Assembly: GCA_016193565.1 (NCBI GenBank)
Contig: JACPRY010000002.1
Coordinates: 1-42,435, forward strand
DNA: 42,435 nucleotides
Source: Armatimonadota bacterium
GTDB taxonomy: Bacteria; Sysuimicrobiota; Sysuimicrobiia; Sysuimicrobiales; Kaftiobacteriaceae
Direction: 5' to 3'
Positions within the stretch are counted from its first letter, which is position 1. Each line of letters begins with the position of its first letter. The translations under genes were made by a program, and so were the position numbers. Under the pieces are notes generated by a model that had not been told where the DNA came from, did not search any database, and worked only from the letters and a program-made list of their open reading frames with translations. This document shows, in pieces, positions 3,753 to 21,979 of the stretch.

Positions 3753-3773
3753 GGTCAACGGCCAACGGTCAAA
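3753..3773. repeat. Short orphan 7-mer array (GGTCAAC x3) containing the ispH stop
   Basis: GGTCAAC GGCCAAC GGTCAAA; TCA at 3769-3771 is the ispH TGA. Confidence 0.55.
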
Positions 3774-4632
3774 GGCGCTGCTGCGTTCCGATCTCCTCCA
3801 GGCGTCGCAGCACCTCGGCGATGATCCACTCCGGTGTCGACGCGCCCGACATCACGCCGACCTTACGCACCCCCGCGAACCAGGCCGGATCCAGCTCCTC
3901 AGGCACTTCTAGATGGTAGGTTGGAAGCTCGTTGGCGCGGCCGATCTCTGCCAGCCGCGTCGTGTTGGCGCTGTGATGGCCGCCGATGACCACAAGAGCG
4001 TCCACCTCCTCCACCATCACTTCGGCCTCTTCCTGGCGGACGGTGATGGCCGGGCACAGCGTGTTCACAACCCTCAACTCTTTGGTGCGCAGCGCCAGAT
4101 CGCCGACAATCTGCCGGAAATTTTCCTGTGACTGTGTCGTCTGCGACATCACGGCGATGCGGCCGCGCAGTTTCACCAGCACCGCTTCTTCGCGCGTGTG
4201 GACAATCGTGACTTTGTCGCCCAGCGCTTCTTTGAGCGTCACCATCTCCGGGTGTCCGTGGTCGCCGACGACCACCAACTGATACCCTTCCTCAACCAGC
4301 TTGAAGGCCAGGGAGTGCGCGCGGATCACAACCGGGCACGTCGCATCCACGATGCGCATGCCCTCGGCCTTCGCCGCGTCGAGGACGCTGTGCTCGACCC
4401 CGTAGGCCGAGACGACGAATGCCTCGCCGGCCAGATCCTCGAGCTCCCCCGCAACCTTTACGCCCGCGTCCTGGAGCTTGCCGACAACCTGAGGATTATG
4501 GATGAGGGGGCCCCACGTGTACACGGATCCTGCCGAGGACTCGGCGGTGCTGCGCGCCATCTCGACCGCTCGCTTGACGCCGCCGCAGAAGCCCATATGT
4601 TTGGCGACGATGATTTCCACGCTCCTTAGCAT
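3769..4632 (-). CDS. ispH: 4-hydroxy-3-methylbut-2-enyl diphosphate reductase
   Basis: GFCGGV, LIHN, DATCP, GHPE, SQTT, NTLCPA..RQ, SANT, GASTP; start uncertain (4632 ATG or 4620 GTG). Confidence 0.95.
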   Translation of the reverse strand: MLRSVEIIVAKHMGFCGGVKRAVEMARSTAESSAGSVYTWGPLIHNPQVVGKLQDAGVKVAGELEDLAGEAFVVSAYGVEHSVLDAAKAEGMRIVDATCPVVIRAHSLAFKLVEEGYQLVVVGDHGHPEMVTLKEALGDKVTIVHTREEAVLVKLRGRIAVMSQTTQSQENFRQIVGDLALRTKELRVVNTLCPAITVRQEEAEVMVEEVDALVVIGGHHSANTTRLAEIGRANELPTYHLEVPEELDPAWFAGVRKVGVMSGASTPEWIIAEVLRRLEEIGTQQRL

Positions 4633-4697
4633 ACACGCCGGCAATAGTCAGTGTCCACGAAGGAGTGCCTTCAAACTCGCCGTATGAGGGTGTTGGC

Positions 4698-5606
4698 ATG
4701 GAGGCTGGGAAAGGGCCAATCCTCGTCATCATTAATCCCACCGCCAGCCGGGGCCGCGGCGTCCGTGCCTGGGCCAGAGTCCGTGATGCGGTGGCCTCCC
4801 GCGGATTTGTCGTCACCGAAGTCCTCACTGAACGGCGGATGCATGCCTGGGAGATCGCGCGTGGTGCCGGTCAGCAGGGCTACAGCACCGTCGTGGCGGT
4901 AGGGGGAGACGGCACTGTGCACGAGGTCATCAACGGTCTGATGCAGACAGCCCAGACGGCGCGGCCTGCGCTGGCGGTCCTTCCCGGGGGAACCGGCAAC
5001 GATTTCGCGCGGGGCATCGGCACACCAAAGCGGGCCGAACTCGCGATTCAGGCGCTACTGAACGGCACGAGAAAGCGTGTTGATGTGGGGCAGGTGAACG
5101 ATCGGTACTTCGGCAGCATCTCGGGCGTGGGGTTCGATGCCGAAACTGCGCGGCAGGCGAACCAGTGGCCGAAGTGGATCGGCGGCACGGCGCTGTACGT
5201 CGCTGCGCTTCTGAAGATGCTTGTAGCCTACACCCCGGTCGAGACGACGATCACGATCGACGGACGCGTCCAGACGATCCGGATGTTTCTACTGGCGGCG
5301 GCCAATACCAAGTGGTACGGGGGCGGAATGTTCATGGCGCCGCATGCAGACATGAATGACGGCCGCCTGGCCGTTGTGTATGCGCGCGACCTGGGGAAAC
5401 TTGAAACGCTCGCAGTGCTCCCGAAAGTCTATTCTGGGAAACACCTGCTGCACCCCAAGGTCTCACACACAACGGCCGACGAAATCCGGGTCGAGAGCGA
5501 CACTCCGCTGTCCATTCACGCCGACGGAGAGATCGTCGGTCGTGTGCCCGCGGTGTTCCGCGCGGTTCACGGCGCCCTTGAAGTGCTGGTCCCCCAACTG
5601 CCGTGA
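4698..5606 (+). CDS. Diacylglycerol kinase family lipid kinase (YegS/DagK/BmrU)
   Basis: INP, GGDGTVHEVING, GTGNDFAR, GFDA, YGGG, DGE. Confidence 0.93.
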   Translation: MEAGKGPILVIINPTASRGRGVRAWARVRDAVASRGFVVTEVLTERRMHAWEIARGAGQQGYSTVVAVGGDGTVHEVINGLMQTAQTARPALAVLPGGTGNDFARGIGTPKRAELAIQALLNGTRKRVDVGQVNDRYFGSISGVGFDAETARQANQWPKWIGGTALYVAALLKMLVAYTPVETTITIDGRVQTIRMFLLAAANTKWYGGGMFMAPHADMNDGRLAVVYARDLGKLETLAVLPKVYSGKHLLHPKVSHTTADEIRVESDTPLSIHADGEIVGRVPAVFRAVHGALEVLVPQLP

Positions 5607-5684
5607 ATCGTGAATCGTGAATGGTGAATCGCACTACCTCTTAGGGTCATCACCATTCACCATTCACCATTCACCATTCACGGC
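5600..5684. repeat. Inverted heptamer-array element, GTGAATG family, copy 1
   Basis: (GTGAATS)x4 at 5603-5630, spacer, (CATTCAC)x4 at 5654-5681; closes with GCC/GGC; contains both convergent stop codons. Confidence 0.92.
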
Positions 5685-6376
5685 TTCTTGGGTTTCTGAT
5701 CCTCCGGCAACAGTTTCGCAATTTCCGCCATGATCCGCCGTCCCCACTCCTCCAGCACCTGGTGATCGAGTTTCCCTTCGATCTTCGGCACGGATAAGGG
5801 CCGGCCGAACCGCACGATGACGCGCTGAAAACGCGGCAGGGCCGAACCCTTGGGCATCGCGCGATGGCTGTTGACAACGGCGATGGGTAGGACCGTCACT
5901 CCCGTCCGCAGCGCCAGCATCGCCGCGCCGGGTTCGGGATCCTGGAGCCGGCCGTCGGGGCTCCGCGTCCCCTCGGGGAACATCACGAGGACGCCTCCGG
6001 AGGCCAGCACCTCGAGCGAGTGCCGGATCGCCGCACGGTCGGGCTGGCCGCGCCGGACGGGAAACGTTCCAATCGATCGCAGCCAGGGACCCACGACCGG
6101 CACCGAAAAGAGCTCGGCCTTCGCCATGTACGCCGCCCGGTTGCGCAGCGCCGCGCCAATGATAAGTGGATCGGCCGCGCTCGCGTGGTTGCCCGCCACG
6201 ATGAACGGGCCCCGCTCCGGCTCGTGCTCCCGGCCTTCGATCGTGAAGCGCGTGAGCACCTTGAAGAACGCGCTCATTACGAGCTTCCAGAAGAGGTACC
6301 ACAGGCCGGAGAGCGTCCCGGCGACGCGGTGCCCGGGGGATGCCCGTGGGATCGACGCGACGGCGTTCCGGTTCAC
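5678..6376 (-). CDS. plsC: 1-acyl-sn-glycerol-3-phosphate acyltransferase
   Basis: NHASAAD (NHxxxxD), FPVRR, FPEGTRS; follows cmk. Confidence 0.92.
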   Translation of the reverse strand: MNRNAVASIPRASPGHRVAGTLSGLWYLFWKLVMSAFFKVLTRFTIEGREHEPERGPFIVAGNHASAADPLIIGAALRNRAAYMAKAELFSVPVVGPWLRSIGTFPVRRGQPDRAAIRHSLEVLASGGVLVMFPEGTRSPDGRLQDPEPGAAMLALRTGVTVLPIAVVNSHRAMPKGSALPRFQRVIVRFGRPLSVPKIEGKLDHQVLEEWGRRIMAEIAKLLPEDQKPKKP

Positions 6377-7065
6377 CGAGGCGGCCTCGCCAGCTGCACA
6401 ATGCGATTCACGATCTCCTCGACGGTCAACCCTGTGGTATCGATGACCACGGCATCCTCGGCCCGTCGCAACGGGGAGTGCGCTCGGGTCGTGTCCCGCC
6501 GGTCGCGCTCTTCCTCAGCCCGCTTGAGTGACTCAAAGTCCACCCGCACACCTTTCGCAACCAGTTCCTGATACCTGCGGCGCGCGCGCTCGGCGGGCGA
6601 CGCGTCCAGAAATACCTTGACGTCGGCATCGGGGAAGACGACGGTGCCGATGTCCCGGCCTTCCATCACCACACCGCCTGACGCGCCCAGCCGCCGCTGC
6701 TCTGCGACCAGGCCCTCCCTGACGGCAGGATGGGCGCTGACGACGGAGGCTGCGTGGCTGACCTCAGGACTGCGGATGATGTCGGTGACATCCGTGCCAT
6801 TGACGAGAATTCGCGGCCGGCCGTTCGCGGTGACGAATTCGATCGACACCGACCTGGCCAGGGTCGCAACGGCACGCTCATTTCGGAGATCCACGCCCTG
6901 AGATTTGGCGAGCCAGGCCACAGAGCGGTACATTGCGCCGGTGTCGACATAGCGATACCGAAGCGCCGCGGCGACCGCCATTGCGACCGTACTCTTTCCG
7001 GCGCCGACCGGTCCGTCGATCGCGATGATCGGCGCCGCCCTGCGGCGTGCTCCGGGATCGGGCAT
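6373..7065 (-). CDS. cmk: Cytidylate kinase
   Basis: IAIDGPVGAGKST, DTGAMYR, MEGRDIGTVVFPDA. Confidence 0.96.
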   Translation of the reverse strand: MPDPGARRRAAPIIAIDGPVGAGKSTVAMAVAAALRYRYVDTGAMYRSVAWLAKSQGVDLRNERAVATLARSVSIEFVTANGRPRILVNGTDVTDIIRSPEVSHAASVVSAHPAVREGLVAEQRRLGASGGVVMEGRDIGTVVFPDADVKVFLDASPAERARRRYQELVAKGVRVDFESLKRAEEERDRRDTTRAHSPLRRAEDAVVIDTTGLTVEEIVNRIVQLARPPR

Positions 7066-7961
7066 CAGCGGTGCTCTGACGTGAGTTGGCGCGCCGCTCC
7101 GGAGGCAAGCACGTGCGGCCGTCCCGACACTGGGTGTGGGACCACCGTGACCGGAATTCCATACGCGGCTTCGAGGATCGGTGCCTGCAACACCTGGTCG
7201 GGTCTGCCGAGCGCGGCGACTCGCCCCCCTGAGAGCAGCACAAGCGGATCGCAGAACGCGGATGCCAGGTTGACGTCGTGCACGGCCGCGACCAGCGCGA
7301 TACCGCCTTGGCGCAGCGCCGACAGCAGCTCCATGATCTCGATCTGGTACCTGAGGTCCAGGTGTGCTGTCGGCTCATCGAGCAGCAGCACGCGGGGTCC
7401 CTGCGCGAGCGCGCGCGCGATCAGCACCCGCTGGAACTCGCCGCCGCTCAACGTGTCGACCGGCCGATGGGCCAGGTGGAGGATGCCGGTTTGCGCCATC
7501 GCCGCACGCACGATTTCGAGGTCCTTCGAGGTTTCGGCGGCAAGGGGAGCGAGGTGTGGGGCCCGGCCCATCGAGACGATCTCATGCGCCGTGAACCCGA
7601 ACCCAGACCCTGTGCGCTGAGGCACGACGCCGGCCAGGGCGGCGACCTCCCGGCGCGACATCTTCGCCACCGGACGGCCCTCGATCAGCACCGTCCCGCG
7701 TTCCGGCGACACCACCGCGTCCATCGCCCGCAGGAGCGTGGTCTTTCCGCTGCCGTTGGGTCCGATGATCCCGCACATCTCTCCTGGCGAGACCGTCAAG
7801 CTGACACCGTCGAGCGCCGGGATCGCGCCGTAGCGGCAGACGATCTGATCAACGAGGATCGCCGCTTGTGCCACTGCCGAATGAGCCACTTCCGCCCCCC
7901 TCACCCTACCCTCTCCCACCCCGGGGAGAGGGGAAGAGGTTGGCCCCTTCCGGGGCCTCAC
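7065..7961 (-). CDS. Cobalamin/Fe-siderophore ABC transporter ATP-binding protein
   Basis: GPNGSGKT, LSGGE.QRV, LDEPTAHLD, HD; start uncertain (GTG 7961 or 7889). Confidence 0.92.
   Translation of the reverse strand: MRPRKGPTSSPLPGVGEGRVRGAEVAHSAVAQAAILVDQIVCRYGAIPALDGVSLTVSPGEMCGIIGPNGSGKTTLLRAMDAVVSPERGTVLIEGRPVAKMSRREVAALAGVVPQRTGSGFGFTAHEIVSMGRAPHLAPLAAETSKDLEIVRAAMAQTGILHLAHRPVDTLSGGEFQRVLIARALAQGPRVLLLDEPTAHLDLRYQIEIMELLSALRQGGIALVAAVHDVNLASAFCDPLVLLSGGRVAALGRPDQVLQAPILEAAYGIPVTVVPHPVSGRPHVLASGAARQLTSEHR
7895..7936. repeat. REP-like CCCTCACCC..CCCTCTCCC/GGGAGAGGG hairpin element
   Basis: CCCCCTCACCCTACCCTCTCCC-ACCCCG-GGGAGAGGGGAAG; 9-bp perfect stem. Confidence 0.7.
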
Positions 7962-8830
7962 CTGCGAAAGGCCTCCGGATGCAGGAGCCGCGCCAGATAC
8001 GCCAGCCCGTCGACGATGCGGGGCCCCGGCCGGGACAGAAGTGCCGAATCGGCGCTGACGACGCGCCCCGACCGGATCGCGTCGACCTGGGCCCAGCCAC
8101 GGCGGGCGAGGACCTGATCGCGCTGGCGATGGGTGAGCACGATGATCTCCGGATTTCGCTGGATCACGGCCTCGGCGCTGAGCTGGGGCCAGCCGCGTAG
8201 ATCCGCGAAGACGTTGCGTCCACCCGCGCGCCGGACCAGATCGTCGATGAACGTCCCCTGCCCTGCCGTGATCAACGGCTCCCCCCAGATCTCGACGTAC
8301 ACCCGAAGCCTCGGCCGTCCCCGCACGGCGGCTTCGACCCCCGACTGCTGCGAGCGCATGCTCGCAATCAGGCGCTGCGCCGCTCGCTCTGATGCCGTCG
8401 CGGCGCCGACGAGCGCAATCTGGGCGTATGTCTGCGGTATCGAATTCGCCTCCACGGCCAGCACCGGCAGTCCCATCGCAATGAGACGCTCAAGCTGCGC
8501 GGCCTGCAGGCCGGGCATCCCGATGATGAGATCGGGCCGCAGGCTCACGATGCGCTCGATATTGAGCTGCACGCCGCCGACGCGGGGTTTCGTCCTGACG
8601 CGCTCCCGCGGGTAGTCGTCAGCATCGCTGACTCCCACGATCCGCCTGTCCAGCCCGAGCGCGAACAGCACTTCGGTGACACTCGGCGCGATGGAGATGA
8701 TGCGGGCCGGTTCCCGGACGAGTGTGACCTTCCGGCCGAGCGCGTCCGTGACCGTGACCGGAAACGCACCGCCGGCCGGCACTGTGGCGGCGAGCACCAG
8801 GGTGAGCGCAAGCCACCAACCTCGAAGCAT
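7958..8830 (-). CDS. Cobalamin/iron-complex ABC substrate-binding protein (BtuF-like)
   Basis: Signal peptide, FPVTVTDALGR, RIISIAPSVTE, ERIVSLRPD, RPGPR; start trimmed to MLRGWW. Confidence 0.9.
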   Translation of the reverse strand: MLRGWWLALTLVLAATVPAGGAFPVTVTDALGRKVTLVREPARIISIAPSVTEVLFALGLDRRIVGVSDADDYPRERVRTKPRVGGVQLNIERIVSLRPDLIIGMPGLQAAQLERLIAMGLPVLAVEANSIPQTYAQIALVGAATASERAAQRLIASMRSQQSGVEAAVRGRPRLRVYVEIWGEPLITAGQGTFIDDLVRRAGGRNVFADLRGWPQLSAEAVIQRNPEIIVLTHRQRDQVLARRGWAQVDAIRSGRVVSADSALLSRPGPRIVDGLAYLARLLHPEAFRR

Positions 8831-8864
8831 CGCTACTCTTCCCAGCTGATCTGCATCCCGAGAT

Positions 8865-9353
8865 TCATTTGAGCGTCCACGTTTTCCGCCAGCTTTCGGG
8901 GAGATCGAGTTCGGCAATTTTCGCGTAGAACACCCACATCCCATGATGAAGCGTTTCGTGTTGTAACAGATACATGAGGTGCTGCAGCAGCGTCGCCTGG
9001 GTCCCATGCCACTCGATCGTACGGGCGGCATCGGCCTCACGCAGCGCGGCGAGCAGCGAGGCGTCTTGTTCCCGCAGGAACGCGTCCAACCGGTCCTTCG
9101 ACTGCTCGAGCGCGCGCTGCCTGGGTCGTGTCGCAAAATCCAGCCGGCCGCTGGTGATCGCGGCGACGTAGGCGGCCTGAATCTCTCCGACGTGACGGAT
9201 CTGGCGGATCAGCGTTCCGAACCCGGGATGGGGCGAGAAGTTCATCACGGCGTAGGGCAGAGACCGCAGGAGATCGTACGTCAACGCCCGCGCCGCCTGC
9301 CACGCGTCCGCCCACTGCTCGATCTCAGGAGTCGGAAACGCCGGCTCCGGCAT
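8865..9353 (-). CDS. DinB/DUF664 family protein
   Basis: IRHVGEIQ and HETLHHG His motifs; AGGAG SD before ATG 9353. Confidence 0.82.
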   Translation of the reverse strand: MPEPAFPTPEIEQWADAWQAARALTYDLLRSLPYAVMNFSPHPGFGTLIRQIRHVGEIQAAYVAAITSGRLDFATRPRQRALEQSKDRLDAFLREQDASLLAALREADAARTIEWHGTQATLLQHLMYLLQHETLHHGMWVFYAKIAELDLPESWRKTWTLK

Positions 9354-9390
9354 GTCGCTCCTACGTTCGCGCACGCCAGATGCAATCCCC

Positions 9391-10521
9391 CTACGGGGGC
9401 CTGCCGGCGAGACGGCGCGCCCATCGGACAAAGCGCGCCCACCACGATCCCCTCCTGACATCTTCGGCGGCGAGCAGCCGCACGTGAGCGACCACCCTGC
9501 CCTCACTGCTGAACACCGCAGTGCCGACAATCTGGCCGCTGCGCACCGGCGCACCTGTCGAGAGCAACGTAATACGCGTTGCAATGGAAGCGCCGCGCCG
9601 GACCGGCACGACGACCTCGTCCTCCGCGACCGCCACCAGGAAACGCGCCCCGCCGGGCAGAGGCCCATCATACAGGATCTCTCCGGCCGCGGCCGCTCGG
9701 ACCGGTGAAAATGCGGCGAAGCCGTAGTCAAGGAGCGCCGCGGCGTCTCTGTACATCCGTGGAGCGTTCAGTACGACGGCGATCAGCTGCCAGCCGTCCC
9801 GGGTGGCTGAGGCGATCAGGCACGGCCCGGACTGTGCGATCCACCCCGTCTTCACGCCGTCGGCCCCACGATACCGCCAGAGCAGGCTGTTTGTATTGAT
9901 CAGCATCATCGACTGTTGGCCGGGGCGGGCGAGGCTCCAGGTTTGCGTGCGGACGATCTCGGCAAACCGGGGAATTCGAAGGGCCGCGCGGGCGATCACC
10001 GCCAGGTCGTAGGCCGTTGCCAGGTGACGCGGATGATAGCGCCCGTGGGGCGAGTTGAAGTGACTGCGCCGCGCGCCGAGCGTCTTCGCACGAGCGTTCA
10101 TCTGGACAGCGAACTGGTCGAGCGATCCGGCCACCGCTTCAGCCAGCGCGATTGCGGCGTCGTTCGCGGAGTGCATCAGCAGCGCATAGAGGAGGTCGCG
10201 CGCCTTCCACCGTTCGCCGGCTTCGAGTCCGATCGCCGACCCAGACCGCTCCTCCGAAGCGCGCTCGTGAATCGGAACCAGTGTCTCGTCGGTCAGCGCC
10301 TCCATCGCGAGGAGTGCGGTCAGGATCTTTGTGGTGCTGGCGGGGGGCCGGGGGACGTCGGGCGATTTCGCGTGGAGCACGCGGCCGCTGCGCGCGTCCA
10401 TCAGGACTGCCGAGGTGGCGCCGATGATCGGGGGGCGGGGCGTTGGGGCCGCCGGCGCCGGCGTACTGATGACGGCGGCCAGCAGATGAAAGACGAGCGC
10501 CGCCGCGGCGATCCAACGCAC
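9391..10521 (-). CDS. Serine D-Ala-D-Ala carboxypeptidase (S11; DacB/DacF-like)
   Basis: PASTTK (SxxK), SAN (SxN), KTG; signal peptide after GTG 10521. Confidence 0.92.
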   Translation of the reverse strand: MRWIAAAALVFHLLAAVISTPAPAAPTPRPPIIGATSAVLMDARSGRVLHAKSPDVPRPPASTTKILTALLAMEALTDETLVPIHERASEERSGSAIGLEAGERWKARDLLYALLMHSANDAAIALAEAVAGSLDQFAVQMNARAKTLGARRSHFNSPHGRYHPRHLATAYDLAVIARAALRIPRFAEIVRTQTWSLARPGQQSMMLINTNSLLWRYRGADGVKTGWIAQSGPCLIASATRDGWQLIAVVLNAPRMYRDAAALLDYGFAAFSPVRAAAAGEILYDGPLPGGARFLVAVAEDEVVVPVRRGASIATRITLLSTGAPVRSGQIVGTAVFSSEGRVVAHVRLLAAEDVRRGSWWARFVRWARRLAGRPP

Positions 10522-10534
10522 GGTGCCGCGGCGA

Positions 10535-11107
10535 TCAGGACGGCGCAGACAGTTCTTCCTGGGAAGGCGCGACACCGTCGAGCGCCTTGCGGGGGTCATG
10601 GTTGGCAAGTGGCGGAAGACTGGTGAGATCTTTGAGTCCGAAGTGCCGCAGGAACGCTTCGGTCGTCCCGTACAGGAACGGCCGGCCGGGCGCCGGGCGC
10701 CGGCCGACTTCTCGGATCAGGTACCGGTCGAGGAGCTTCTCCAAAACGTGCTCGCAGCGCACCCCACGGACCGCTTCGATCTCCCCACGCGTCACCGGCT
10801 GTCGGTACGCGATGATCGCGAGCGTCTCCAGCTGCGCATGCGTGAGCGTCTCCTGATGCTCCAGCTGGAGAAAGCGCTGCACATAGTCGGCGTAGGCCGG
10901 CCGGGTGACCAGCTGGTACCCGCCGGCGACTTCCTGAATCTGCAGGCCGTGGCCCTCGTAGTCACGGGCCAGATCAGCCAGCGCAGAGATGATGACCTCG
11001 TCGCGTGCGCCGAGCGCCTCACGTAGCTGCTGAAGCCGGACCGGGCCGCCGCCCACGAGGAGGAGGCATTCCGCGGCCCGCTTGAGCATGTCGTCGCCGA
11101 CGCTCAT
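10535..11107 (-). CDS. scpB: SMC-Scp complex subunit ScpB
   Basis: LETLAIIAYRQPVTRGEIEAVRGV, PGRP.LYGTT..FL..FGL. Confidence 0.96.
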   Translation of the reverse strand: MSVGDDMLKRAAECLLLVGGGPVRLQQLREALGARDEVIISALADLARDYEGHGLQIQEVAGGYQLVTRPAYADYVQRFLQLEHQETLTHAQLETLAIIAYRQPVTRGEIEAVRGVRCEHVLEKLLDRYLIREVGRRPAPGRPFLYGTTEAFLRHFGLKDLTSLPPLANHDPRKALDGVAPSQEELSAPS

Positions 11108-11829: not shown

Positions 11830-11843
11830 GGGCTAACCCTCCA

Positions 11844-11943
11844 ACTGCGGAAACAAGGAAACGTGGAAACTAGGAAACGACACGAAATCAACTGAAGTTC
11901 GGTGTTTTGTTTCCTCGTTACCTTGTTTCCTCGTTTCCGCAGT
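11844..11943. repeat. Inverted octamer-array element, GGAAACNN family
   Basis: ACTGC+(GGAAACNN)x4 at 11849-11880, 26-nt spacer, (TYGTTWCC)x4 at 11907-11938 + GCAGT. Confidence 0.92.
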
Positions 11944-11959: not shown

Positions 11960-12574
11960 TCAAAAGAACGTTGCTCCCGTCGCCTGCGCCACCAGCCACC
12001 GCATCGGCGGGATCATGAAGGCCGAGAGGACATTGGTGAACGCAACCAGCAGCAGCAGGACGAGTGTCCCGTAGGGTGTGAACCGAGCATAACTGATCGC
12101 TTGCGCCGGAGGCAGGAGTCCCATCAGGATCTTCGAGCCATCGAGCGGCGGGACGGGCAGGAGGTTGAAGACGGCCAGCATCGCGTTGATACGAATCGTC
12201 GTCAGCAGCAGGCGTTCGAGCGGCGCCGAGAAGTCGAGCAGACCGAGTTTGAACGGCATGCCCAGCAGAAACAACAGCGTCACGTTGGCCAGGGGGCCGG
12301 CCGCGGCGACGATCATGGTGTCCCGCCGCCACTCCCGGAAGTTCGCGGGATTGATCTGGACGGCCTTCGCCCACCCAAACCCGGCCAGAAGGATCAGCAG
12401 GGACCCCAACGGATCGAGGTGAGCCAGCGGGTTGAGGGTCAGCCGCCCCTGGCTCCTGGGAGTGGAATCCCCCAGGCGATCGGCGACGTACGCGTGGGCG
12501 TATTCGTGGACGGTGGCTGCAACGATGAGCGCCGCGGCGACCCGCAGGAGCGTTGGGAGATCGAGACCCAGCAT
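11960..12574 (-). CDS. Site-2 protease family (M50) membrane metalloprotease, YwhC-like
   Basis: HEYAH, GRLTLNPLAHLDP, AGPLAN, FNLLPVPPLDG. Confidence 0.93.
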   Translation of the reverse strand: MLGLDLPTLLRVAAALIVAATVHEYAHAYVADRLGDSTPRSQGRLTLNPLAHLDPLGSLLILLAGFGWAKAVQINPANFREWRRDTMIVAAAGPLANVTLLFLLGMPFKLGLLDFSAPLERLLLTTIRINAMLAVFNLLPVPPLDGSKILMGLLPPAQAISYARFTPYGTLVLLLLVAFTNVLSAFMIPPMRWLVAQATGATFF

Positions 12575-13931: not shown

Positions 13932-13963
13932 GCAAGATTCGTCAGCTCCCTTGGCGACCGGCG

Positions 13964-13992
13964 TTGCGGCTGTGGATTTGGGCAAGTACACT
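13964..13992 (+). promoter_or_regulatory. Putative sigma70 promoter of the thiolase gene
   Basis: TTGCGG-N17-TACACT, back to back with the lysA promoter. Confidence 0.55.
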
Positions 13993-14029
13993 TGAGACGG
14001 CGGGCGCCATCGCACCCGCAGGTGATTGT

Positions 14030-15208
14030 ATGCGAGACGTCGTGATTCTCAGCGCGGCGCGCACGCCCATCGGCCGCTTCCTGGGCGGCCTGGCCGCCAT
14101 CCCGGCGCCGCGCCTGGGCAGCATCGCCATCGCCGAGGCGATCCGTCGGGCCGGGATTGATAAGGGCGACGTCGACGAAGTCCTCATGGGCCATGTGCTG
14201 ACCGCCGGGGTTGGAGGGGCGCCGGCACGTCAAGCCACACTATACGCGGGCCTGCCGACCTCCGTGCCTGCGACCACCATCAACAAGATGTGCGGCTCTG
14301 GCCTCAAGACGGTGATGATGGGGGCACAGGCGATCGCCGCCGGCGACGCCGACATCATCGTTGCCGGCGGGATGGAGAACATGAGCGCCGCCCCCTACCT
14401 CCTGCCGCGTGCCCGCGCCGGCTACCGGCTGGGCGACGACAAGATCATCGACACGGTGCTCCACGATGGCCTGGTTGATGCCTTCAAACACATTCATATG
14501 GGCAACTGCGCGGAGATCCTGGCACGCGAGTACAAGATCTCCCGCCAGGAGCAGGATGACTACGCTCGGCTGAGCTACTCGCGCGCGATCGCGGCGATGG
14601 ATGACGGGTTCTTCGCAAACGAGATCGTCCCAGTCGAAGTGTCCCAGGGCAAAGCCGAACCGGCGATCGTCGCCGAAGACGAGGAACCCCGCCGCGTAGA
14701 CTTCGGCAAGATGGCAACACTGCGTCCCGTATTCGAGGAGAACGGCACGGTGACGGCGGCCAACGCCAGCAGCATCAGCGACGGCGGGGCGGCGGTGGTG
14801 ATTGCGGCGGCGGAGGTCACAAAGGCGAAGGGGCTTCGCCCCCTGGCCCGCATCGTCGGCCAGGCGGGGGCGGCGATGGCTCCGGAATGGTTCACGATCG
14901 CCCCCGCGCAGGCCGCCCGGGCGCTGCTGGACAAGGTCGGCTGGTCGAGAGATCACGTGGATCTGTTCGAGATCAACGAAGCCTTTGCCGCGGTCGTCAT
15001 TGGGGTGTGCCGCGACCTCGGTCTCGCGTATGACCGGGTGAACGTCCACGGCGGCGCGGTCGCCATGGGTCACCCTATCGGCGCAAGCGGCGCCCGGATT
15101 CTCACCACCCTGCTGTATGCGATGCCGCGGAACGAAGCCCGGCGCGGTGTCGTCGCGATCTGCCTGGCCGGGGGCGAGGCCGTCGCCCTCGCAATCGAAA
15201 GGATGTAG
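14030..15208 (+). CDS. Acetyl-CoA C-acetyltransferase (canonical thiolase)
   Basis: NKMCGSG, GGMENMS, NEAFA, GHPIGASG, ICLAGG: all catalytic Cys/His/Cys present. Confidence 0.95.
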   Translation: MRDVVILSAARTPIGRFLGGLAAIPAPRLGSIAIAEAIRRAGIDKGDVDEVLMGHVLTAGVGGAPARQATLYAGLPTSVPATTINKMCGSGLKTVMMGAQAIAAGDADIIVAGGMENMSAAPYLLPRARAGYRLGDDKIIDTVLHDGLVDAFKHIHMGNCAEILAREYKISRQEQDDYARLSYSRAIAAMDDGFFANEIVPVEVSQGKAEPAIVAEDEEPRRVDFGKMATLRPVFEENGTVTAANASSISDGGAAVVIAAAEVTKAKGLRPLARIVGQAGAAMAPEWFTIAPAQAARALLDKVGWSRDHVDLFEINEAFAAVVIGVCRDLGLAYDRVNVHGGAVAMGHPIGASGARILTTLLYAMPRNEARRGVVAICLAGGEAVALAIERM

Positions 15209-16996
15209 TTGACGCCGGCGGCTTACCTGACGCTTGCCGTTCTACTCGTCGCTACCGTCGCCTTCGCCAGCGGCCGGTGGCGGCCCGATGCGGTCGCCGT
15301 CCTCACCCTGCTCGCGCTGCTCCTCGGCGGGGTGATCTCCCCCGAGAAAGGATTCGCCGGCTTTGGCTCTCCGGTGCTCGTCGCCGTCGCGTGCGTCCTC
15401 GTGGTGAGTGCCGCCCTCGACCGCACCGGGATCGCAGCGACCATCGGCCGGCGCATCCTCCGTGCCGCGGGCGCGAACGAGCTGCGGCTCGTTATCACCT
15501 TCGGCACCGTGGCCGGCCTCCTGGCCGGCGTCATGAACAGCATCGGTGCGATCGCCGTGCTGCTGCCTGCCGCCATGGCCGCGGCGCGCGAAGCGCGGAT
15601 GAGCCCCTCAAAGCTGCTGCTGCCGCTTGCGCTCGGAACCCGGCTCGGCGGCAACCTGACCTTGATCTCCGGACCCAGTAACCTCATCGCCAGCGACGCG
15701 CTGGTTCACGGCGGAGGGCGCCCGTTGGGATTGTTTGAATTTCTTCCCCTCGGCCTCGCATTTCTCATCGGCGGCATGGCCTTCATCGCCTATGTTGGGC
15801 GGCGATGGTTGCCGGATGTGCCGATCCACGAGCTCCCGCGGTCAGGGCGGCTGATGGAACTCTACCGCCTCAAAGAGCGGCTGTTCGAGGTGAAGATCCC
15901 TGAGGACTCGCCGCTGGTCGGCCGGACGATCGGAGAAAGCAATCTCGGCCGCGCGCACGGGCTGACGGTGCTCCGCATCACCAGGGCCGGCCGCCAGATC
16001 CTGGCACCGACCCGCGAGGAGGTCCTGTTCGACGGAGATCTGCTTACCGTGCAGGGCTTGATGGAAGCGTTGACCAAGGACGGTGCCCTGCAGACCATCG
16101 GCCTCGGGCCGGCCACGGAAGTCACCGCGCCGTTGCTGGAATCGGCCGACGTCCGTGTCGTGGAGGTGATCCCGGCGCCGCGCTCGACATTTGCGGGAAA
16201 GACGCTGCGCGAGATTGGCTTCCGCGAAAAGTATGGCATGACCGTGCTCGCAATCTGGCGTGAGGGCCAGCCCCGGCGCACCGGTCTGGTCGATCTGCCG
16301 GTCCGGTTAGGCGATGCGCTCCTCGTGCAGGGGCACAGGGAGCGGATCAGACTGCTCAAGCGGGATCCTGAGTTCCTTGTGCTTGAGCCGGAGACCGAGG
16401 AGATCCCGCGCGCCGACCGGGCGGCGTGGGCGCTTGCGGCCGTCGTGCTCATGATCGCGGCGATCACCGCCGACGTACTCCCGGTCGCCGTCGCCACACT
16501 GCTGGCCGCGGGTATTGTCGTCGCTGGTGGATGCCTGACATTAGAGGAAGTCTACCGGTCGATCGACTGGCGGGCCCTGGTGATGATCGGCGCGATGTTG
16601 CCGGTGGGGGACGCCCTCGGCGCCACCGGGGCCGCAGGGGTGGTGGTCACCGGCACCCTCGAATTTATCGGCCGGACCCCGCTGGCGGCCATGTCCGCGC
16701 TGCTGCTTGCGGCGATCGCCATCAATCAGCTGATGCCGAGCATCGCCGCCACCGCGCTGCTGGCGCCGATTGCGCTCCAGGCCGCCCAGGCGACCGGCGG
16801 GAATCCCGTCGCCTTCGTGATGGCGGTGGTTGCCGGAACCGGTACAACCTTCACGCCGATCAGCAACCCCGTGAACCTGCTGGTGATGGGACCCGGCGGT
16901 TACAAGGTGAGCGACTACGTTCGGATCGGCCTGCCGCTGGCGCTCGTCCTCGGCGCAATCGCGGTGCTGGTGATCATCACCTTCTGGCCTCTGTGA
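15209..16996 (+). CDS. SLC13/CitMHS-type permease with two TrkA-C (RCK_C) domains
   Basis: Multiple TM segments, SKLLLPL...LGG.LTLI...NL, two SPL.G.T RCK_C-like repeats, GGYK.SDY.RIG. Confidence 0.88.
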   Translation: MTPAAYLTLAVLLVATVAFASGRWRPDAVAVLTLLALLLGGVISPEKGFAGFGSPVLVAVACVLVVSAALDRTGIAATIGRRILRAAGANELRLVITFGTVAGLLAGVMNSIGAIAVLLPAAMAAAREARMSPSKLLLPLALGTRLGGNLTLISGPSNLIASDALVHGGGRPLGLFEFLPLGLAFLIGGMAFIAYVGRRWLPDVPIHELPRSGRLMELYRLKERLFEVKIPEDSPLVGRTIGESNLGRAHGLTVLRITRAGRQILAPTREEVLFDGDLLTVQGLMEALTKDGALQTIGLGPATEVTAPLLESADVRVVEVIPAPRSTFAGKTLREIGFREKYGMTVLAIWREGQPRRTGLVDLPVRLGDALLVQGHRERIRLLKRDPEFLVLEPETEEIPRADRAAWALAAVVLMIAAITADVLPVAVATLLAAGIVVAGGCLTLEEVYRSIDWRALVMIGAMLPVGDALGATGAAGVVVTGTLEFIGRTPLAAMSALLLAAIAINQLMPSIAATALLAPIALQAAQATGGNPVAFVMAVVAGTGTTFTPISNPVNLLVMGPGGYKVSDYVRIGLPLALVLGAIAVLVIITFWPL

Positions 16997-17000
16997 AACT

Positions 17001-17078
17001 GCCGAAGGTCGTATGTCGAAGGTCGAATGTTGCCACGGAAATTGCTCTCGACTTTCGACCTACGACCTTCGACCTACG
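17001..17078. repeat. Inverted heptamer-array element, GTCGAAG family
   Basis: GCCGAAG GTCGTAT GTCGAAG GTCGAAT, 17-nt spacer, TCTCGAC TTTCGAC CTACGAC CTTCGAC CTACG; CTA 17074-76 is the trmI stop. Confidence 0.85.
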
Positions 17079-17868
17079 TTGTTTTCTCTGGTTGGATCTT
17101 CCTGGCCGTGGTGATGAAGGCGGTATGCGCCACCATCCGGTGTGCCGGACGTACGCTCTGCCCCTCAATGTTCCACGGCCGGAGCAGCGTCTCGCTCGTC
17201 TCAATCATGGCAAACGTGCCCTCCCGACGGAGCGTCTCCACCATCTGCGCGGCCTGCGGGACCGTCGGCACATACGACAGCAGCACCCCACCGGGACGGA
17301 GGGCCCCCGCTGCGTGCGGAACGACCCGCCAGGGCTCGGGGACATCAAGGAGGATGCGGTCGAGCGGTTGATCGGGGATTGCCTCGTACACGTCCTGCGC
17401 CCGCAGGACGAGATGATCCACTGGACCCAGATACCACTCGATGTTCTGGACCGCCCGTCGTTGGAACTCCTCGCGGACCTCGTACGAGAACACCCGGCCG
17501 TTGGGTCCCGCTGCGCGCAGGAGCGCCATGGTCAGCGCGCCGGACCCCGTGCCGGCTTCAAGGACCGTCGCGCCTGGAAAGATGTCCGCCGCAATGAGGA
17601 TCACGCTGAGGTCCTTCGGGTAGATGATCTGCGCCCCGCGGGGCATTTCGAGTACGAACTCAGCCAGCGTGGGCCGGAGGAGCAGGAACTGCTCTCCGCG
17701 TGTGGTGGTGACGTACCGGCCTTCGGACGTGCCGAGGAGCTGGTCGTGCGGAAGTTTGCCGCCACGCAGATCAGCAGTCGCGCCGGCGCGAAGCGTGATC
17801 ATGTAGCGCCGGGATTTGCGGTCAATGAGCAGCACGGGCTCGCCTTCATGGAGCGGGCCGCTGCGCAC
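17074..17868 (-). CDS. trmI: tRNA (adenine58-N1)-methyltransferase
   Basis: MPRGAQIIYPKD, EAGTGSGALT, LDVPEPW, RPAHRMVAHTAF. Confidence 0.93.
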   Translation of the reverse strand: MRSGPLHEGEPVLLIDRKSRRYMITLRAGATADLRGGKLPHDQLLGTSEGRYVTTTRGEQFLLLRPTLAEFVLEMPRGAQIIYPKDLSVILIAADIFPGATVLEAGTGSGALTMALLRAAGPNGRVFSYEVREEFQRRAVQNIEWYLGPVDHLVLRAQDVYEAIPDQPLDRILLDVPEPWRVVPHAAGALRPGGVLLSYVPTVPQAAQMVETLRREGTFAMIETSETLLRPWNIEGQSVRPAHRMVAHTAFITTARKIQPEKTT

Positions 17869-18281
17869 TACGCGTTCACGCCTCGGGGTTTCACGTGTTC
17901 CCTCACCCAGCGGACGATGTACTCCAGTGAAGCCCCGGGGGTGAAGATCTCGCTCACCCCCGCGCCCTTCAACCCTAGCACGTCGTCTTCAGGAATAATC
18001 CCCCCGCCGAAGACGACGATATCGTCTGCCCCGTTGGCCCGAAGGAGCTCCATGACACGCGGCAACAGCGTCATGTGCGCGCCGGAGAGGATCGAGAGTC
18101 CGATCGCGTCCGCGTCCTCCTGGATCGCCGCGTTCACGATCATCTCGGGGGTCTGGTGCAGCCCGGTGTAGATCACCTCGAACCCCGCGTCCCGCAGAGC
18201 GCGCGCCACGACCTTCGCCCCGCGGTCGTGGCCATCCAACCCGGGCTTGGCGACGATGATTCTGATCTTAGAGTTGGCCAT
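17868..18281 (-). CDS. icmB: Acyl-CoA mutase small (cobalamin-binding) subunit
   Basis: [10 protein letters not shown] (DxHxxG), SILSGAH, GGIIP; adjacent to the large subunit. Confidence 0.85.
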
Positions 18282-18297
18282 CGGAATGATCTTACTA

Positions 18298-18339
18298 CCG
18301 TTTTCTCGTTTCCTCGATTCCTCGTTTCCTCGATTCCGC
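18298..18339. repeat. Orphan octamer arm, GGAAACNN family
   Basis: CCGTTTTC TCGTTTCC TCGATTCC TCGTTTCC TCGATTCC GC, just after the mutase stop; matches the right arm at 11907-11940. Confidence 0.85.
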
Positions 18340-18341
18340 CT

Positions 18342-20027
18342 CTAGATTATCGCGGGTTCCCGATACTCCCCGTAGACCGCCCTGAACACATCGCAGATTT
18401 CGCCCAACGTGCACCCGGCCTTCACGCATTCGAGGACGTGATACATGGTGTTGCCGCCGCCGTCGGCCGCCGATTTCAAACCGCCCAGGGCTCGCCCTGC
18501 GCGGACGCTCTCCCGCTGCGCGCGCACCCGGCTCACCCGCTCGATCTGGCGGCGCTCCACCTCAGGATCGACGCGGAGAAGGGGAATCCGCCGTTCCTCG
18601 GGCACGAGGAACTCATTGACCCCGACAATGATCTGCTCTTTTCGCTCCAGTTGCTGCTGGTAGTGATAGCTGGCTTCGGCGATCTCCCGCTGCGGGTAGC
18701 CGAGCTCGACCGCCCGCACCATCCCGCCGAGATCGTCGATCTTCTGGATATACGCCTCGGCGCGCTCCTCCATAGTGTTGGTCAGCGACTCCACGAAGTA
18801 CGCGCCGCCCAGCGGGTCCGCGGTGTTCGTCAACCCGCTCTCATGGGCGATAATCTGCTGGGTACGGAGCGCCACCATGACGGCTTGCTCCGTCGGGAGG
18901 GCATACGTCTCGTCCATGGAGTTGGTATGCAGCGACTGGGTGCCACCGAGCACCGCCGCGAGTGCCTGGACTGCCACACGGACGATATTGTTGAGCGGCT
19001 GCTGTGCCGTGAGCGACACGCCGGCAGTCTGGGTGTGGAAGCGCAGCCACCACGAGCGCGGGTTCTGAGCCGCAAAGCGCTCTCGCATGATCCGGGCCCA
19101 CAGGCGGCGGGCGGCGCGGAACTTGGCGATCTCCTCGAAGAAGTCGTTGTGGCAATCGAAGAAAAATGACAGGCGCGGCGCGAACTCGTCGACATCGAGT
19201 CCCGCCTCCGTTCCGGCCTGGACGTATGCGATCCCGTCAGCGAGTGTGAACGCGAGCTCCTGGACCGCCGTCGCCCCGGCCTCGCGGATGTGGTATCCGC
19301 TGATGCTGATGACGTTCCACTTGGGCAGCTCGCGCGTGCCGAAGACCAGCATGTCCTGGATCAGCTTCATGCTCGGCCGCGGCGGCACGATCCATTCCTT
19401 CTGGGCAATGAACTCCTTGAGCATATCCGTCTGGGTCGTGCCGCCGATCTGCGTCCGGGCGAAGCCCATCGACTCGGCCGCCGCGACATACATCGCCAGG
19501 AGCACGTTCGCCGGCGCATTGATCGTCATCGAGGTCGTGATACGGTCCAGCGGCAGGCCGCGAAGGAGGATGGCCATGTCCTCGGCTGTGTCGATCGCGA
19601 CGCCCTCGCGGCCGACCTCGCCGAGCGCGCGCGGGTGGTCGGAATCGTAGCCCATCAGCGTGGGCATGTCGAACGCGACCGACAGTCCCGTTTGCCCATG
19701 CTCCAGGAGGTAGTGAAAGCGGCGGTTGGTGTCCTCGGCGGACCCGAACCCGGCGAACTGGCGCATCGTCCACAAGCGGCCGCGATACATCGTCGGATGG
19801 ACCCCGCGGGTATATGGGTACTCTCCCGGGACGCCAAGCTCACGCTGGGGATCGAAATCCTTCAGGTCCTCTGGACCATAAACCCGATCGATCGGCAGAT
19901 CTGAGAGTGAGGAGAATCGCTCCACGCGCTCGGGCTGGCTCTTCAAGGATTGCTTGAGCGTCGTGGCCTCCCAGCGCTGCCTTTCGCGGCGGAGGTGCTC
20001 GAGTTTCTTGGGGTCGATCAAATTCAT
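18342..20027 (-). CDS. icmA: B12-dependent acyl-CoA mutase large subunit, isobutyryl-CoA mutase type
   Basis: [50 protein letters not shown]. Confidence 0.85.
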
Positions 20028-20036
20028 CAACTCCTC

Positions 20037-20114
20037 AGGGCTTGGGGCTTAGGGCTTTGGGCTTAGAATTCCTCATCCTCATTATTAAGCCCTAAGCCCG
20101 ATGCCCTAAGCCCT
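20037..20114. repeat. Inverted heptamer-array element, GGGCTTA family, copy 1
   Basis: (NGGGCTT)x4 at 20037-20064, 21-nt spacer, TAAGCCC TAAGCCC GATGCCC TAAGCCC; contains the etfA stop. Confidence 0.92.
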
Positions 20115-21098
20115 TCCTTTCGCCTGGCGTATCGCTTCCGTCAGTTTGGGCACGATCTCGAACAGGTCGCCGACGATGCCGAGGTCGGCGAGTTGAAAGA
20201 TCGGTGCGTTGGAGTCCTTATTGATAGCCACAATGTATTTCGCGCCCGACATCCCGGCGAGGTGCTGCGGTGCGCCGGAGATGCCGCATGCGAGGTAGAC
20301 CTGCGGGCTCACGGTCTTTCCGGTCTGCCCGATCTCATAGTCGTGGCTCACCCAGCCTGAGTCCACCGGCGGTCGCGATGATCCGACCGCCGCCCCCAGC
20401 GCCTTCGCCAGCGCGTCAAGGAGAGCGAAGTTCTCAGGTCCCTTCAGGCCCCGACCACCGGAGACGATCACGTCGGCTTCGGTCAGCGGCACCGTCTCGC
20501 GCTGGATGGCACGCACCTCGCGGACCTGTGTCCGTACCCCCTTGCTGTCGAGCGCGACCTGGAACGCTCTGATCTCTGCGCGGCGCCCGGCCTCAGCCGG
20601 TGGCACGGAATACACGGCCGGGAGCACCACGGCAATCCGGATCCCCCCGCTCGAAAACACCACCGTGCCGATCGTCTTTCGCGTGTACATCGGCCGAGTC
20701 GCCACCAGATGACCGTCCGCGACCTCCAGGCTCGCGCAGTCGGTCACGATCCCAGCGCCGAGCCTGGCCGCGACCCGGGGCGCGTAATCCCGGCCCTGTG
20801 CTGTGGACCCGACGAGCACGAGGGTGGGCTGCTCTGCTTGGAGCGCCTGACTGACAGCCTGCGCGTACGCATCTGCGGTGTACGGCTGCAGGAGCGCATG
20901 ATCCGCCGCATAGACAATGTCCGCTCCCCGGGAACCAAGTGACTCAGCGACGTTCGACACACCGGCGCCTGGCACGAACGCCACGACCGTTCCGCCAAGT
21001 GTCTCGGCCAGTTCCCGGGCGCGGCCAAGCAGCTCAAGGCTGATTTTTTTTGGCGCGCCGTCCTGATGCTCGATGATGACCCACACGTCCTTCGACAT
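20106..21098 (-). CDS. etfA: Electron transfer flavoprotein alpha subunit
   Basis: [39 protein letters not shown]. Confidence 0.95.
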
Positions 21099-21100
21099 CG

Positions 21101-21892
21101 CTACAGAACTTTCGCTTCGTTCTTGAGGAACGCGACAATCTCGGCCACGGCTTTCTCGGCATCCTCTTCAATCATCCGGCCGGCCTGGCGCTTGGGCGGG
21201 GGCACGAGCCGCGTCAAGGCGCTCTTCGCCGCAGTTGCACCGACGGAGGGGACCTCGACGCCGAGATCGGCGAGGCTCATCGTCTTGATCTCCTTGCGCT
21301 TGGCCTTCATGATGCCCGGGAGCGACGGGTAGCGCGGCTCATTGAGGCTGCGCTCAACCGTCAGGAGCGCCGGCAGCGGGACCTCCAGCACTTCCACCCC
21401 ACCCTCGACCTCACGATGAACAACCACGGTCCCCCCCGACGTGTCAACCTCCAGCTGGGCAATCGCCGTCGCCTGCGGCAGGCCGAGCAGTTCGGCCAGC
21501 GCCGGTCCCACGATCGCGGCGTTGTCGTCCGTGCTGAGTTTCCCGCAGATGATAAGGTCGTGCGGCAAGGTCTTGATCGCCGCCGCCAGCACACGCGCCG
21601 TCCCGAGATGATCGCTACCCAGGAGCGCCACGTCGCTGACGAGGATCGCCTCGTCCGCCCCCATCGCCAGTCCGGTGCGTAATGCCTCCTTGGTGCGCTC
21701 GGGGCCGACGCCGATCAAGGTGACCGAACCGCCGAACTGCTCCTTAAGGCGCAGTCCGGCCTCAGTCGCATGCTCGTCATAGTAGTTCATGACGAGGTTG
21801 AGGCCCGATTCATCAATACCGCTCCCGTCAGGCCGAATGCGAATCGGGGCCTCCGTGTCGGGAACCTGTTTGACACAGACGACGATGTTCAC
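21101..21892 (-). CDS. etfB: Electron transfer flavoprotein beta subunit
   Basis: IVVCVKQVPD, LAMGAD, NEPRYPSL.GIMKAK. Confidence 0.95.
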   Translation of the reverse strand: MNIVVCVKQVPDTEAPIRIRPDGSGIDESGLNLVMNYYDEHATEAGLRLKEQFGGSVTLIGVGPERTKEALRTGLAMGADEAILVSDVALLGSDHLGTARVLAAAIKTLPHDLIICGKLSTDDNAAIVGPALAELLGLPQATAIAQLEVDTSGGTVVVHREVEGGVEVLEVPLPALLTVERSLNEPRYPSLPGIMKAKRKEIKTMSLADLGVEVPSVGATAAKSALTRLVPPPKRQAGRMIEEDAEKAVAEIVAFLKNEAKVL

Positions 21893-21905
21893 CCTACAAC
21901 ACCTC

Positions 21906-21979
21906 GTGAATAGTGAATGGTGAATGGTGAATCACTACATCCGGTTCTTGCCATTCACCATTCACAATTCACCATTCAC
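21906..21979. repeat. Inverted heptamer-array element, GTGAATG family, copy 2
   Basis: (GTGAATN)x4 at 21906-21933, 18-nt spacer, (MATTCAC)x4 at 21952-21979; contains the dehydrogenase stop; abuts the etfB SD. Confidence 0.92.

Follow-up and report, generated by a model that had tools for sequence, protein, structure and literature searches.

Tandem arrays of short words between bacterial genes have long been an unexplained oddity, at least since the work reviewed by Rehm et al. (2015; PMC4692102) and MacGregor (2015; PMC4679880). According to the first paper, the heptamers GGGAATC and GGGGA(C/T)T of Xanthomonas and Nostoc prefer four units and have an unknown function; they are biased toward intergenic DNA, are rare between divergent genes, carry the G-rich strand on the coding strand at 0-50 bp from a stop codon (overlaps with the stop included), may form inverted pairs, and vary in length and sequence among close relatives. 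Its introduction also cites the heptanucleotide short tandemly repeated repetitive (STRR) sequences of cyanobacteria for Calothrix PCC7601. The second paper describes TAACTGA direct repeats in marine Beggiatoaceae, some Cyanobacteria and Bacteroidetes, in sets of 2-6 units that lie mostly just before start codons; a single inverted pair occurred among 170 sets. It also points out that such repeats give stops in all frames and so limit overlap with the ends of open reading frames (ORFs). Here we analyze related elements in a window of 42,435 nucleotides (nt) from an Armatimonadota bacterium (assembly GCA_016193565.1, contig JACPRY010000002.1, positions 1 to 42,435). Tandem Repeats Finder (TRF), an inverted-repeat search and sequence inspection gave six hairpins and three single arrays in this window. 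In these elements and genome-wide, the vague placement "within 50 bp of the stop" can be made exact: an array begins on the native stop codon itself or immediately behind it and leaves the protein end untouched, and the position stays while the word can change.

The source genome of the window, G000, belongs to a host described as a soil bacterium and is available as a 1.74-Mb assembly of 183 contigs with 64% GC. Genes were called with our own codon-usage caller (1815 genes, 90% coding), so that stop positions are robust because stops are ORF ends, while start positions are approximate. Arrays and their boundaries were called genome-wide by TRF, and hairpins in the window by the inverted-repeat search. 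Relatives used below include G001, from the same genus, and G009, from the same family; the genome-wide orthologue comparison was made between G000 and 803 kb of G001, about one third of that genome.

The genome harbors 132 intergenic hairpins and 182 intergenic single arrays with a period of 6-9 nt (all but two of 7-9 nt), and roughly one in six of its gene junctions is occupied. TRF called period 7 most often, with 263 mostly intergenic arrays against 67 mostly coding ones in a genome that is 90% coding, and words of 8 and 9 nt occur as well. The median arm is 31 nt long (4.3 units), the median loop 21 nt and the median whole element 86 nt. At least 15 words are in use, among them GTGAATN, GGGAACN, AGGGCTT, CGAAGGT/CGTAGGT, GTGACTN, GGAAACNN, GACAACGC, GGTAACGC and several 9-mers. 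The purine-rich arm is 5' in 85 of 126 hairpins, 3' in 27 and unclear in 14; likewise, 59 of the 83 single arrays within 6 nt of a stop are purine-rich on the coding strand and 10 are pyrimidine-rich. Elements occupy 18.5% of convergent, 15.7% of co-directional and 9.8% of divergent gaps, at densities of 2.0, 2.1 and 0.49 per kb, respectively. Minimum free energies of the six hairpins in the window range from -40 to -53 kcal/mol, with z scores of -6 to -10 against shuffled sequences. A role as intrinsic terminators was rejected, with a run of at least four T following the distal arm at only 12 of 133 ends, and an Rfam search of the window at the gathering score returned no match. One family, GGGCTT/GGGCAT (contig C12 at 6912, C87 at 6184 and C134 at 152), has arms (GGGCTTC)n and (GATGCCC)n with an identical A-A or U-U mismatch in every unit; the two arms have therefore been homogenized separately and not copied from each other.

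With tandem arrays of about four units, an intergenic bias and the purine-rich strand at the stop, these hairpins are a variant within the known heptamer-repeat class, and their function is unproven. They share with the repeats of Rehm et al. (2015; PMC4692102) every property listed above for them except the G-tracts. Most words, such as GTGAATN, CGAAGGT, GACAACGC and GGAAACGA, have no GGG tract, although GGGAACN and AGGGCTT have one; the tracts that define the quadruplex subclass are thus missing from most G000 words, and a quadruplex is unlikely. G000 differs further from those repeats in using many words of 7, 8 and 9 nt within one genome, in anchoring its arrays at 0-5 nt, in having a common TAACTRM cap (below), in forming hairpins in 132 of its 314 intergenic elements, and in the orthologue evidence for native stops. 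Our literature searches on heptamer, STRR and TAACTGA repeats found no description of stop-flush, multi-word hairpins. STRR sequences are tandem intergenic heptamers with several words per genome, as in G000; we know of no stop anchoring or paired-arm architecture among them. What is new in G000 is the anchoring resolved to 0-5 nt, the orthologue test of it, the change of words at fixed junctions, and a cap that joins two published repeat types.

Hairpin ends lie at a median of 4 nt from a stop (n = 133) and 18 nt from a start (n = 119), single arrays at 7 nt (n = 173) and 48 nt (n = 155), respectively, and the array-to-stop distances peak at -5/-4, 0/+1 and +4/+5 nt. Such closeness could be a matter of passive tolerance, whereby arrays arise or land anywhere and purifying selection spares those in the few harmless bases between a stop and the next ribosome-binding site (RBS), making proximity to both a by-product of tiny gaps. 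The observed placement was compared with a null in which each element is placed uniformly in its own gap, with up to 9 nt of stop overlap and at least 12 nt kept clear before the start, and the test was restricted to gaps leaving at least 30 nt of freedom. In these roomy gaps, a position near a stop (-9 to +5 nt) was taken by 24 of 48 hairpins, compared to an expectation of 13.1 (z 3.9), and by 47 of 116 single arrays, compared to one of 24.9 (z 5.4). There was no excess at 6-22 nt from a start, where 13 of 49 hairpins (10.8 expected) and 17 of 113 single arrays (21.2 expected) were found. Because the excess near stops holds where there is room for other placements, stop anchoring is real. Shine-Dalgarno (SD)-like motifs precede 50% of starts with or without an element, and subtracting the element from co-directional hairpin gaps leaves a median of 23 nt, compared to 19 nt in element-free gaps. 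Closeness to the SD is what short gaps give, and arrays touch it for no other reason than the shortness of the ancestral spacers, about 0-20 nt. The first-pass annotation of this DNA had proposed that insertion is targeted to stop/RBS junctions. The stop half of that proposal is supported by the roomy gaps, the stops in unit 1 and the unchanged protein ends (below), whereas the RBS half falls to chance level: the far-end contacts with the SDs of icmA, etfB, scpA and thiolase B are present in the window, but against random placement the genome-wide distances are tighter to stops only, not to SDs or starts.

Passive tolerance would account for the chance-level SD proximity and the ordinary residual spacing. 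It would also fit the 23 hairpin junctions with both neighbors in G001, where the G001 gap is at most 24 nt in nine cases and G000 is longer by roughly the length of the element (in the remaining 14 the G001 gap is at least 51 nt). It does not predict anchoring that persists with 30 nt or more of room, nor stops that fall in unit 1 and not in units 2-3 even though relatives tolerate extensions of 2-5 amino acids (aa), nor C-termini at least as conserved as in controls. We consider it unlikely as the explanation of the placement.

It had also been claimed that the repeat arms supply the stop codons of the flanking genes, and proposed, as an alternative to targeted insertion, that heptamers containing TGA or TAG, by placing stops in all three frames as period 7 shifts the frame, make near-terminal insertions harmless. 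The claim is half right: stops that overlap an array nearly always sit in its first unit, but against element-free orthologues the protein ends turn out to be native. Thirty-six genes have an array at most 6 nt from their stop in G000 and lack one in G001; the C-terminal length is equal in 27 of them and within 2 aa in 34, compared to 150 and 186 of 242 control genes with an array in neither genome; the stop codon is identical in 17 of 36 and 132 of 242, respectively. At seven sites where the word contains TGA, the stop in G001 is TGA in three and TAA in four and occupies the same codon or a neighboring one (the TAA sites differ in length by 0, 0, +1 and -1), and at one of the seven, on contig C57, the third base of the last sense codon has also changed to the G of the unit. 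The tails of 12 window genes were compared with G001 and G009; relative to G001, tail length is equal for five of them and within 2 aa for 11, the difference being 4 aa for the lipid kinase (lipK), whose tail QLP is encoded in the window by the cap CAACTGCCG. The acyl-CoA dehydrogenase gene (acd) stops at the same codon in G000, G001, G009 and locus L001, and the etfA stop codon occupies the same alignment position as in loci L001-L004. Given these equal lengths in array-free orthologues, the first unit overlays or abuts the native stop and makes no new ends.

The same frames bear on the possibility that arrays are kept as stop pads, since a period of 7 or 8 puts stops in every frame and would end read-through or frameshifted translation. 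The arithmetic is right and was noted for TAACTGA by MacGregor (2015; PMC4679880), and ORFs of relatives do end inside arrays: in G009 trmI ends ..VNRES, plsC ..RESVNRES and lipK ..SEW out of GTGAAT units, and GTGACT units encode the end ..VTSDW of acd in locus L002. Of the 252 arms, however, no more than 71 close all three frames when read inward, which equals the 28% obtained from arrays of shuffled units (on the opposite strand, 2 of 252, because the arms are purine-rich), and the abundant words GGGAACN, CGAAGGT, GACAACGC and GGAAACGA are stop-free. Where a stop-side arm does close every frame (61 arms), the stop of the gene precedes the array in 29 cases and straddles its edge in two; 27 stops fall in unit 1, three in unit 2 and none in unit 3. 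The 27 of 30 overlapping stops in unit 1 compare with 37% expected from random frame entry (binomial p 1.8e-9). ORFs almost never run past unit 1, and therefore the all-frame stop pad is not the main cause of the placement. It is a very improbable explanation, already largely refuted in G000. In genome G005 (locus L086), too, an ORF reads into an array: the ispH tail ..QPTQSTQ is translated, as three-residue repeats, from a 9-nt-word hairpin at the 3' end of the gene. Apart from this question, acd of L002 (2011-2592), a locus of the closest named relative, seems interrupted, tblastn covering residues 1-182 before an in-frame stop, possibly through a frameshift or an assembly error.

Arrays meet the stop in three forms. 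In the first, the stop lies inside the first unit, in words with TGA or TAG (GTGAAT, CGTAGGT, AGGGCTT-AG). In the second, the array starts 0-1 nt past the stop (TRA|CG...), usually with CG, and the next base is C in 77% of 39 genes at this distance. In the third, one heptamer intervenes, TAACTGA, TAACTGC, TAACTAC or TAACTAA, of which the TAA is the stop. Of the hairpin ends, 35% on the stop side and 26% on the start side carry the core of this cap, ACT[AG][ACG], compared to 4.9% of random intergenic windows and 4.3% of windows of the stop plus 14 nt in element-free genes; the cap belongs to the element and not to stops. On the far side the cap is the complement (CG-GYAGTT) and lengthens the stem. 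Stop-codon use differs between genes near an array and those without one (chi-square p 2e-11): among the 69 genes whose stop is followed by an array after 2-6 nt, 40 end in TAA, compared to 267 (19%) of the 1423 genes without an element. TAA is also in excess in the array-free G001 orthologues, where it ends 14 of 36 genes, compared to 52 of the 242 controls (Fisher p 0.034).

The cap is where G000 meets the repeats of MacGregor (2015; PMC4679880): these share the heptamer itself (as TAACTGA, TAACTGC or TAACTAC in the cap), the forward orientation relative to genes, stops in every frame that restrict how far arrays overlap ORF ends, and the patchy phylogeny. They differ in that G000 uses a single TAACTRM unit, anchored at stops, on arrays of other words; no tandem TAACTGA pair was found in G000, where the heptamer occurs as a single cap unit. 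The exact pattern of cap plus GGGAACN was detected at four loci of the species collection (two in Gemmatimonadota, one in Armatimonadota and one in Methylobacterium), and one Gemmatimonadales chromosome has the full architecture with the same cap and word, with the TAA in the cap behind an apparent ORF.

The window elements are collected in Table 1. The first-pass annotation had placed the stops of lipK, plsC, trmI, etfA and acd in or overlapping the outermost unit, and every coordinate checks out; it also listed ispH, whose run was not called by TRF and is the weakest of the cases. The arrays it had placed beside stops 1169, 16996, 18342, 24364 and 26211 lie at 1, 1 or 6, 4, 4 and 1 nt from them. 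In G001, the gaps at the six hairpin junctions, in the order of the table, are -11, 19, -14, -12, 244 (a different insertion) and 0 nt.

Table 1. Repeat elements of the window, with the genes they contact and the same junctions in relatives.
Element	Coordinates	Strand	Contacts and boundaries	Relatives
Single array, about four 9-nt units	1129..1167		Ends 1 nt before stop 1169-1171 of minus-strand gene 1169-1717	G001: one copy of the 9-nt unit after TAA, same position
Weak run, about three imperfect heptamers	3753..3773		Over ispH stop 3769-3771 (TCA); then a terminator-like GC hairpin	
GTGAATN hairpin	5596..5684		AACTGC cap 5596-5601; arms 5602-5631 and 5650-5682; lipK TGA 5604-5606 in outermost unit CGTGAAT; plsC TCA 5678-5680 in the other outermost unit; minimum free energy -45.5 kcal/mol, z -10	
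GGAAACNN (8-nt) hairpin	11843..11943		ACTGC/GCAGT caps; ACTGC cap touches scpA SD GGAGGG 11837-42; far end 21 nt from TRF array end (11938) to stop of gene 11960-12574	Gap 19 nt in G001, -10 in G009
CGAAGGT hairpin	16997..17078		AACTGC cap 16997-17002 directly after TGA 16994-96; array to stop (16996) 1 nt with cap counted, 6 by TRF boundary; trmI stop CTA 17074-17076 in last unit, CGTAGGT	14-nt convergent overlap in G001; GTGAAT hairpin in G009
Single GGAAACGA-type 8-nt array	18299..18337	-	4 nt after icmA stop 18342-44	icmA tail ..EYREPAII identical in G000, G001 and G009
AGGGCTT hairpin	20037..20114		etfA stop CTA 20106-20108 in outer unit; other end touches icmA SD GAGGAG 20031-36	Compact and element-free: start 3 nt after stop in L002, genes overlap in G001
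GTGAATN hairpin	21906..21979		acd stop TCA 21976-78 in outer unit; other end touches etfB SD GAGGTG 21900-05	
AGGGCTT hairpin	24362..24446		Preceded by TAAGTGA, its TAA 24362-64 being the stop of gene 23216-24364; array 4 nt from stop 24364; SD GGAGGA 24451-56 follows	Gap 0 nt in G001
Single GACAACGN 8-nt array	26213..26240	+	1 nt after TGA 26209-11	G001: equal-length spacer (83 nt), only degenerate 8-nt periodicity

At 18 junctions with an array in both G000 and G001, the words were compared by eye: the same word was found at five, related words at two or three and unrelated words at about ten, and the stop position is unchanged at 11. The trmI junction carries CGAAGGT in the window and GTGAAT in G009, and locus L002 has GTGACT at acd/etfB and ACCAGGGA behind icmA. 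On contig C133, a small GC hairpin conserved between G000 and G001 is bracketed by arms whose words differ between the two genomes; on C34, arrays of different words stand between the stop and a conserved hairpin; and on C29, every one of the four units has T in one genome and G in the other. Between lipK and plsC, G001 has AGGGCTT units and G000 has GTGAAT. The tails of these two genes overlap by 39-77 nt in seven of the nine relatives with both gene ends in view (11 were examined; locus L087 was left out of the count, as plsC lies outside it), by 183 nt in L091 and by 11 nt in G001, and the hairpin takes the place of the overlap in the window. In most family genomes (loci L083-L092), therefore, one stretch of DNA encodes the two C-terminal tails, each on its own strand. 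Three consecutive GTGAATN units matched 123 times in G000, 9 in G001, 67 in G009, 39 in G011, 58 in G015 and 34 in G017, at most four times in each of the other 12 family genomes, and never in the 12 genomes searched from six other families of the order.

Growth in place is another way in which such arrays might arise, with slippage expanding a chance proto-repeat at a gene end and template switching in the quasi-palindrome copying the other arm. It would explain the one-unit or degenerate versions seen in G001 behind acd (GTGAAT...ATTCAC), behind gene 1169 (one 9-mer where G000 has four) and at 26213, where the spacer has the same length in both genomes; the uniform T/G difference in all four units on C29; and the resemblance of the etfA end codons to the AGGGCTT unit. 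What it leaves unexplained is that the same words recur at dozens of loci, that sister species carry unrelated words at the same junction, as between lipK and plsC, and, further, the shared TAACTRM cap and the stop anchoring. We regard it as distinctly improbable. A narrower version, local seeding of the word from the gene end, was dropped; it fits etfA and acd and fails at lipK/plsC.

Several other repeats were observed. In G009 (locus L127), a 9-nt-word hairpin lies between the genes matching window genes 14030-15208 and 15209-16996. The convergent gap at 26980-27146 of the window is taken up by a repeat that is rich in GC, about 100-240 nt long and present with inverted copies (GGGGCCCCTCAGGCC...GGAGCCCCCG), and a related copy fills the 244-nt acd/etfB spacer of G001 (L125), the site of the GTGAAT hairpin in the window. 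Among 80 etfA loci searched by TRF, heptamer arrays were found just before the etfA start or just after the stop in L008, L051, L058, L015 and L055, which belong to Acidobacteria, Calditrichia, Bacteroidota, Anaerolineae and Ignavibacteria, respectively.

The burst-like, patchy abundance of GTGAATN raises the possibility that the elements are non-autonomous and mobile, like MITEs (miniature inverted-repeat transposable elements) or doublets of repetitive extragenic palindromic (REP) sequences (REPINs), and that a transposase prefers stop-like targets such as TAA or TGA followed by C. In REP sequences and their mosaic (BIME) and doublet forms, the foot of the stem carries the motif GTAG, to which GYAGTT would be the counterpart in G000. 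Liang, Rudd and Deutscher reportedly found in 2015 that E. coli REPs no more than about 15 nt from the stop affect translation. REP, BIME and REPIN sequences resemble the G000 elements in being abundant intergenic palindromes at gene 3' ends in the company of Y1_Tnp genes, whereas the G000 arms are tandem short words of many kinds and not one imperfect palindrome. According to a review of RNase R, mRNAs with REP sequences are targets of RNase R and polynucleotide phosphorylase.

Mobility would agree with the inverted terminal motif (TA)ACTRM...KYAGT(TA), a MITE-like feature shared by 26-35% of ends, with the TAA excess at empty orthologous sites, with the four Y1_Tnp genes of G000 (PF01797 search), and with the occurrence of the same cap, word and architecture in the Gemmatimonadales chromosome. 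On the other hand, what flanks two of the four Y1 genes is another palindrome, GGTGCCAGGCACC, which forms a separate family of 32-48 copies, and no heptamer hairpin adjoins any of the four; Y1 transposases of the REP-associated (RAYT) type were accordingly dropped as drivers of the hairpins. The arms can bracket a conserved older spacer, which is not the arrival of one block, many unrelated words share one architecture, and G001 carries single-unit and degenerate versions where G000 has arrays. A listing of the flanks, in which no dedicated search for duplications was made, showed none of the target; the TA common to TAAC...GTTA may be one. A duplication considered at acd/etfB was rejected, the GTGAA at both ends being the repeat unit and the sequence after the element only loosely resembling the acd tail of L001. 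Mobility of this kind is, on balance, quite unlikely. As regards the Y1 genes themselves, that of the window (41174-41755, minus strand) encodes a 193-aa Y1_Tnp protein (IS200-like/RAYT-like) with tandem palindromic GGTGCCAGGCACC-type repeats directly upstream (41798-41844), and on contig C169 a second Y1 gene likewise has the palindrome directly upstream. Together, GGTGCCAGGCACC and the Y1 gene look like a REP-RAYT pair of the conventional kind, distinct from the heptamer hairpins.

The data show the anatomy of the arrays and their shared cap, the anchoring on pre-existing stops, the intact C-termini and the change of words at fixed junctions. The explanation that we favor, with moderate confidence, is that the word arrays are kept flush with native stops either by selection for hairpin geometry or by stop-directed installation. 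The purine-rich copy is anchored on the stop of the upstream gene and its reverse complement stands at the far end of the spacer, so that the transcript can fold into a stem of about 30 bp whose foot joins the stop to the next RBS or to the stop of a convergent gene. In the mRNA, such a stop-flush hairpin would loop out the added sequence and leave, at the foot of the stem, a stop-to-start spacing like that of an ordinary operon junction. With this geometry, the two genes might stay translationally coupled and the untranslated spacer be protected. The arrays would be held in place by selection for it, or by installation directed to stops, while the words stay free to be replaced; the conserved position with changing words fits both. 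As causes of the anchoring, targeted insertion and selection appear inseparable from sequence, although the TAA excess at empty sites may lean to target choice.

Several observations weigh against this explanation. As the 182 single arrays lack a partner arm, whatever anchors them must be able to work without a hairpin. In roomy gaps, about half of the elements lie away from a stop; the polarity is reversed in 27 of 126 hairpins; and the TAA excess in array-free G001 orthologues fits target choice as well as selection. Any role of the arrays at the RNA level is our inference, the comparison with G001 covers 803 kb, and the gene starts come from our own caller.

Stops may, in a more far-reaching proposal, be the installation sites of a cassette-like system of swappable words, in which some machinery or templated repair would write about four copies of a 7-8-nt word directly 3' of the stop and the complement at the far end of the spacer, with TAACTRM as punctuation. 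We consider this doubtful, while noting that the TAACTRM heptamer is common to the Beggiatoa and cyanobacterial repeats, whereby the cap links two repeat types that were described separately, and that the same architecture is present in Gemmatimonadota. If this proposal were true, the hairpin would keep a stop and the next start adjacent, and the arrays would be a cross-phylum way of punctuating operons.

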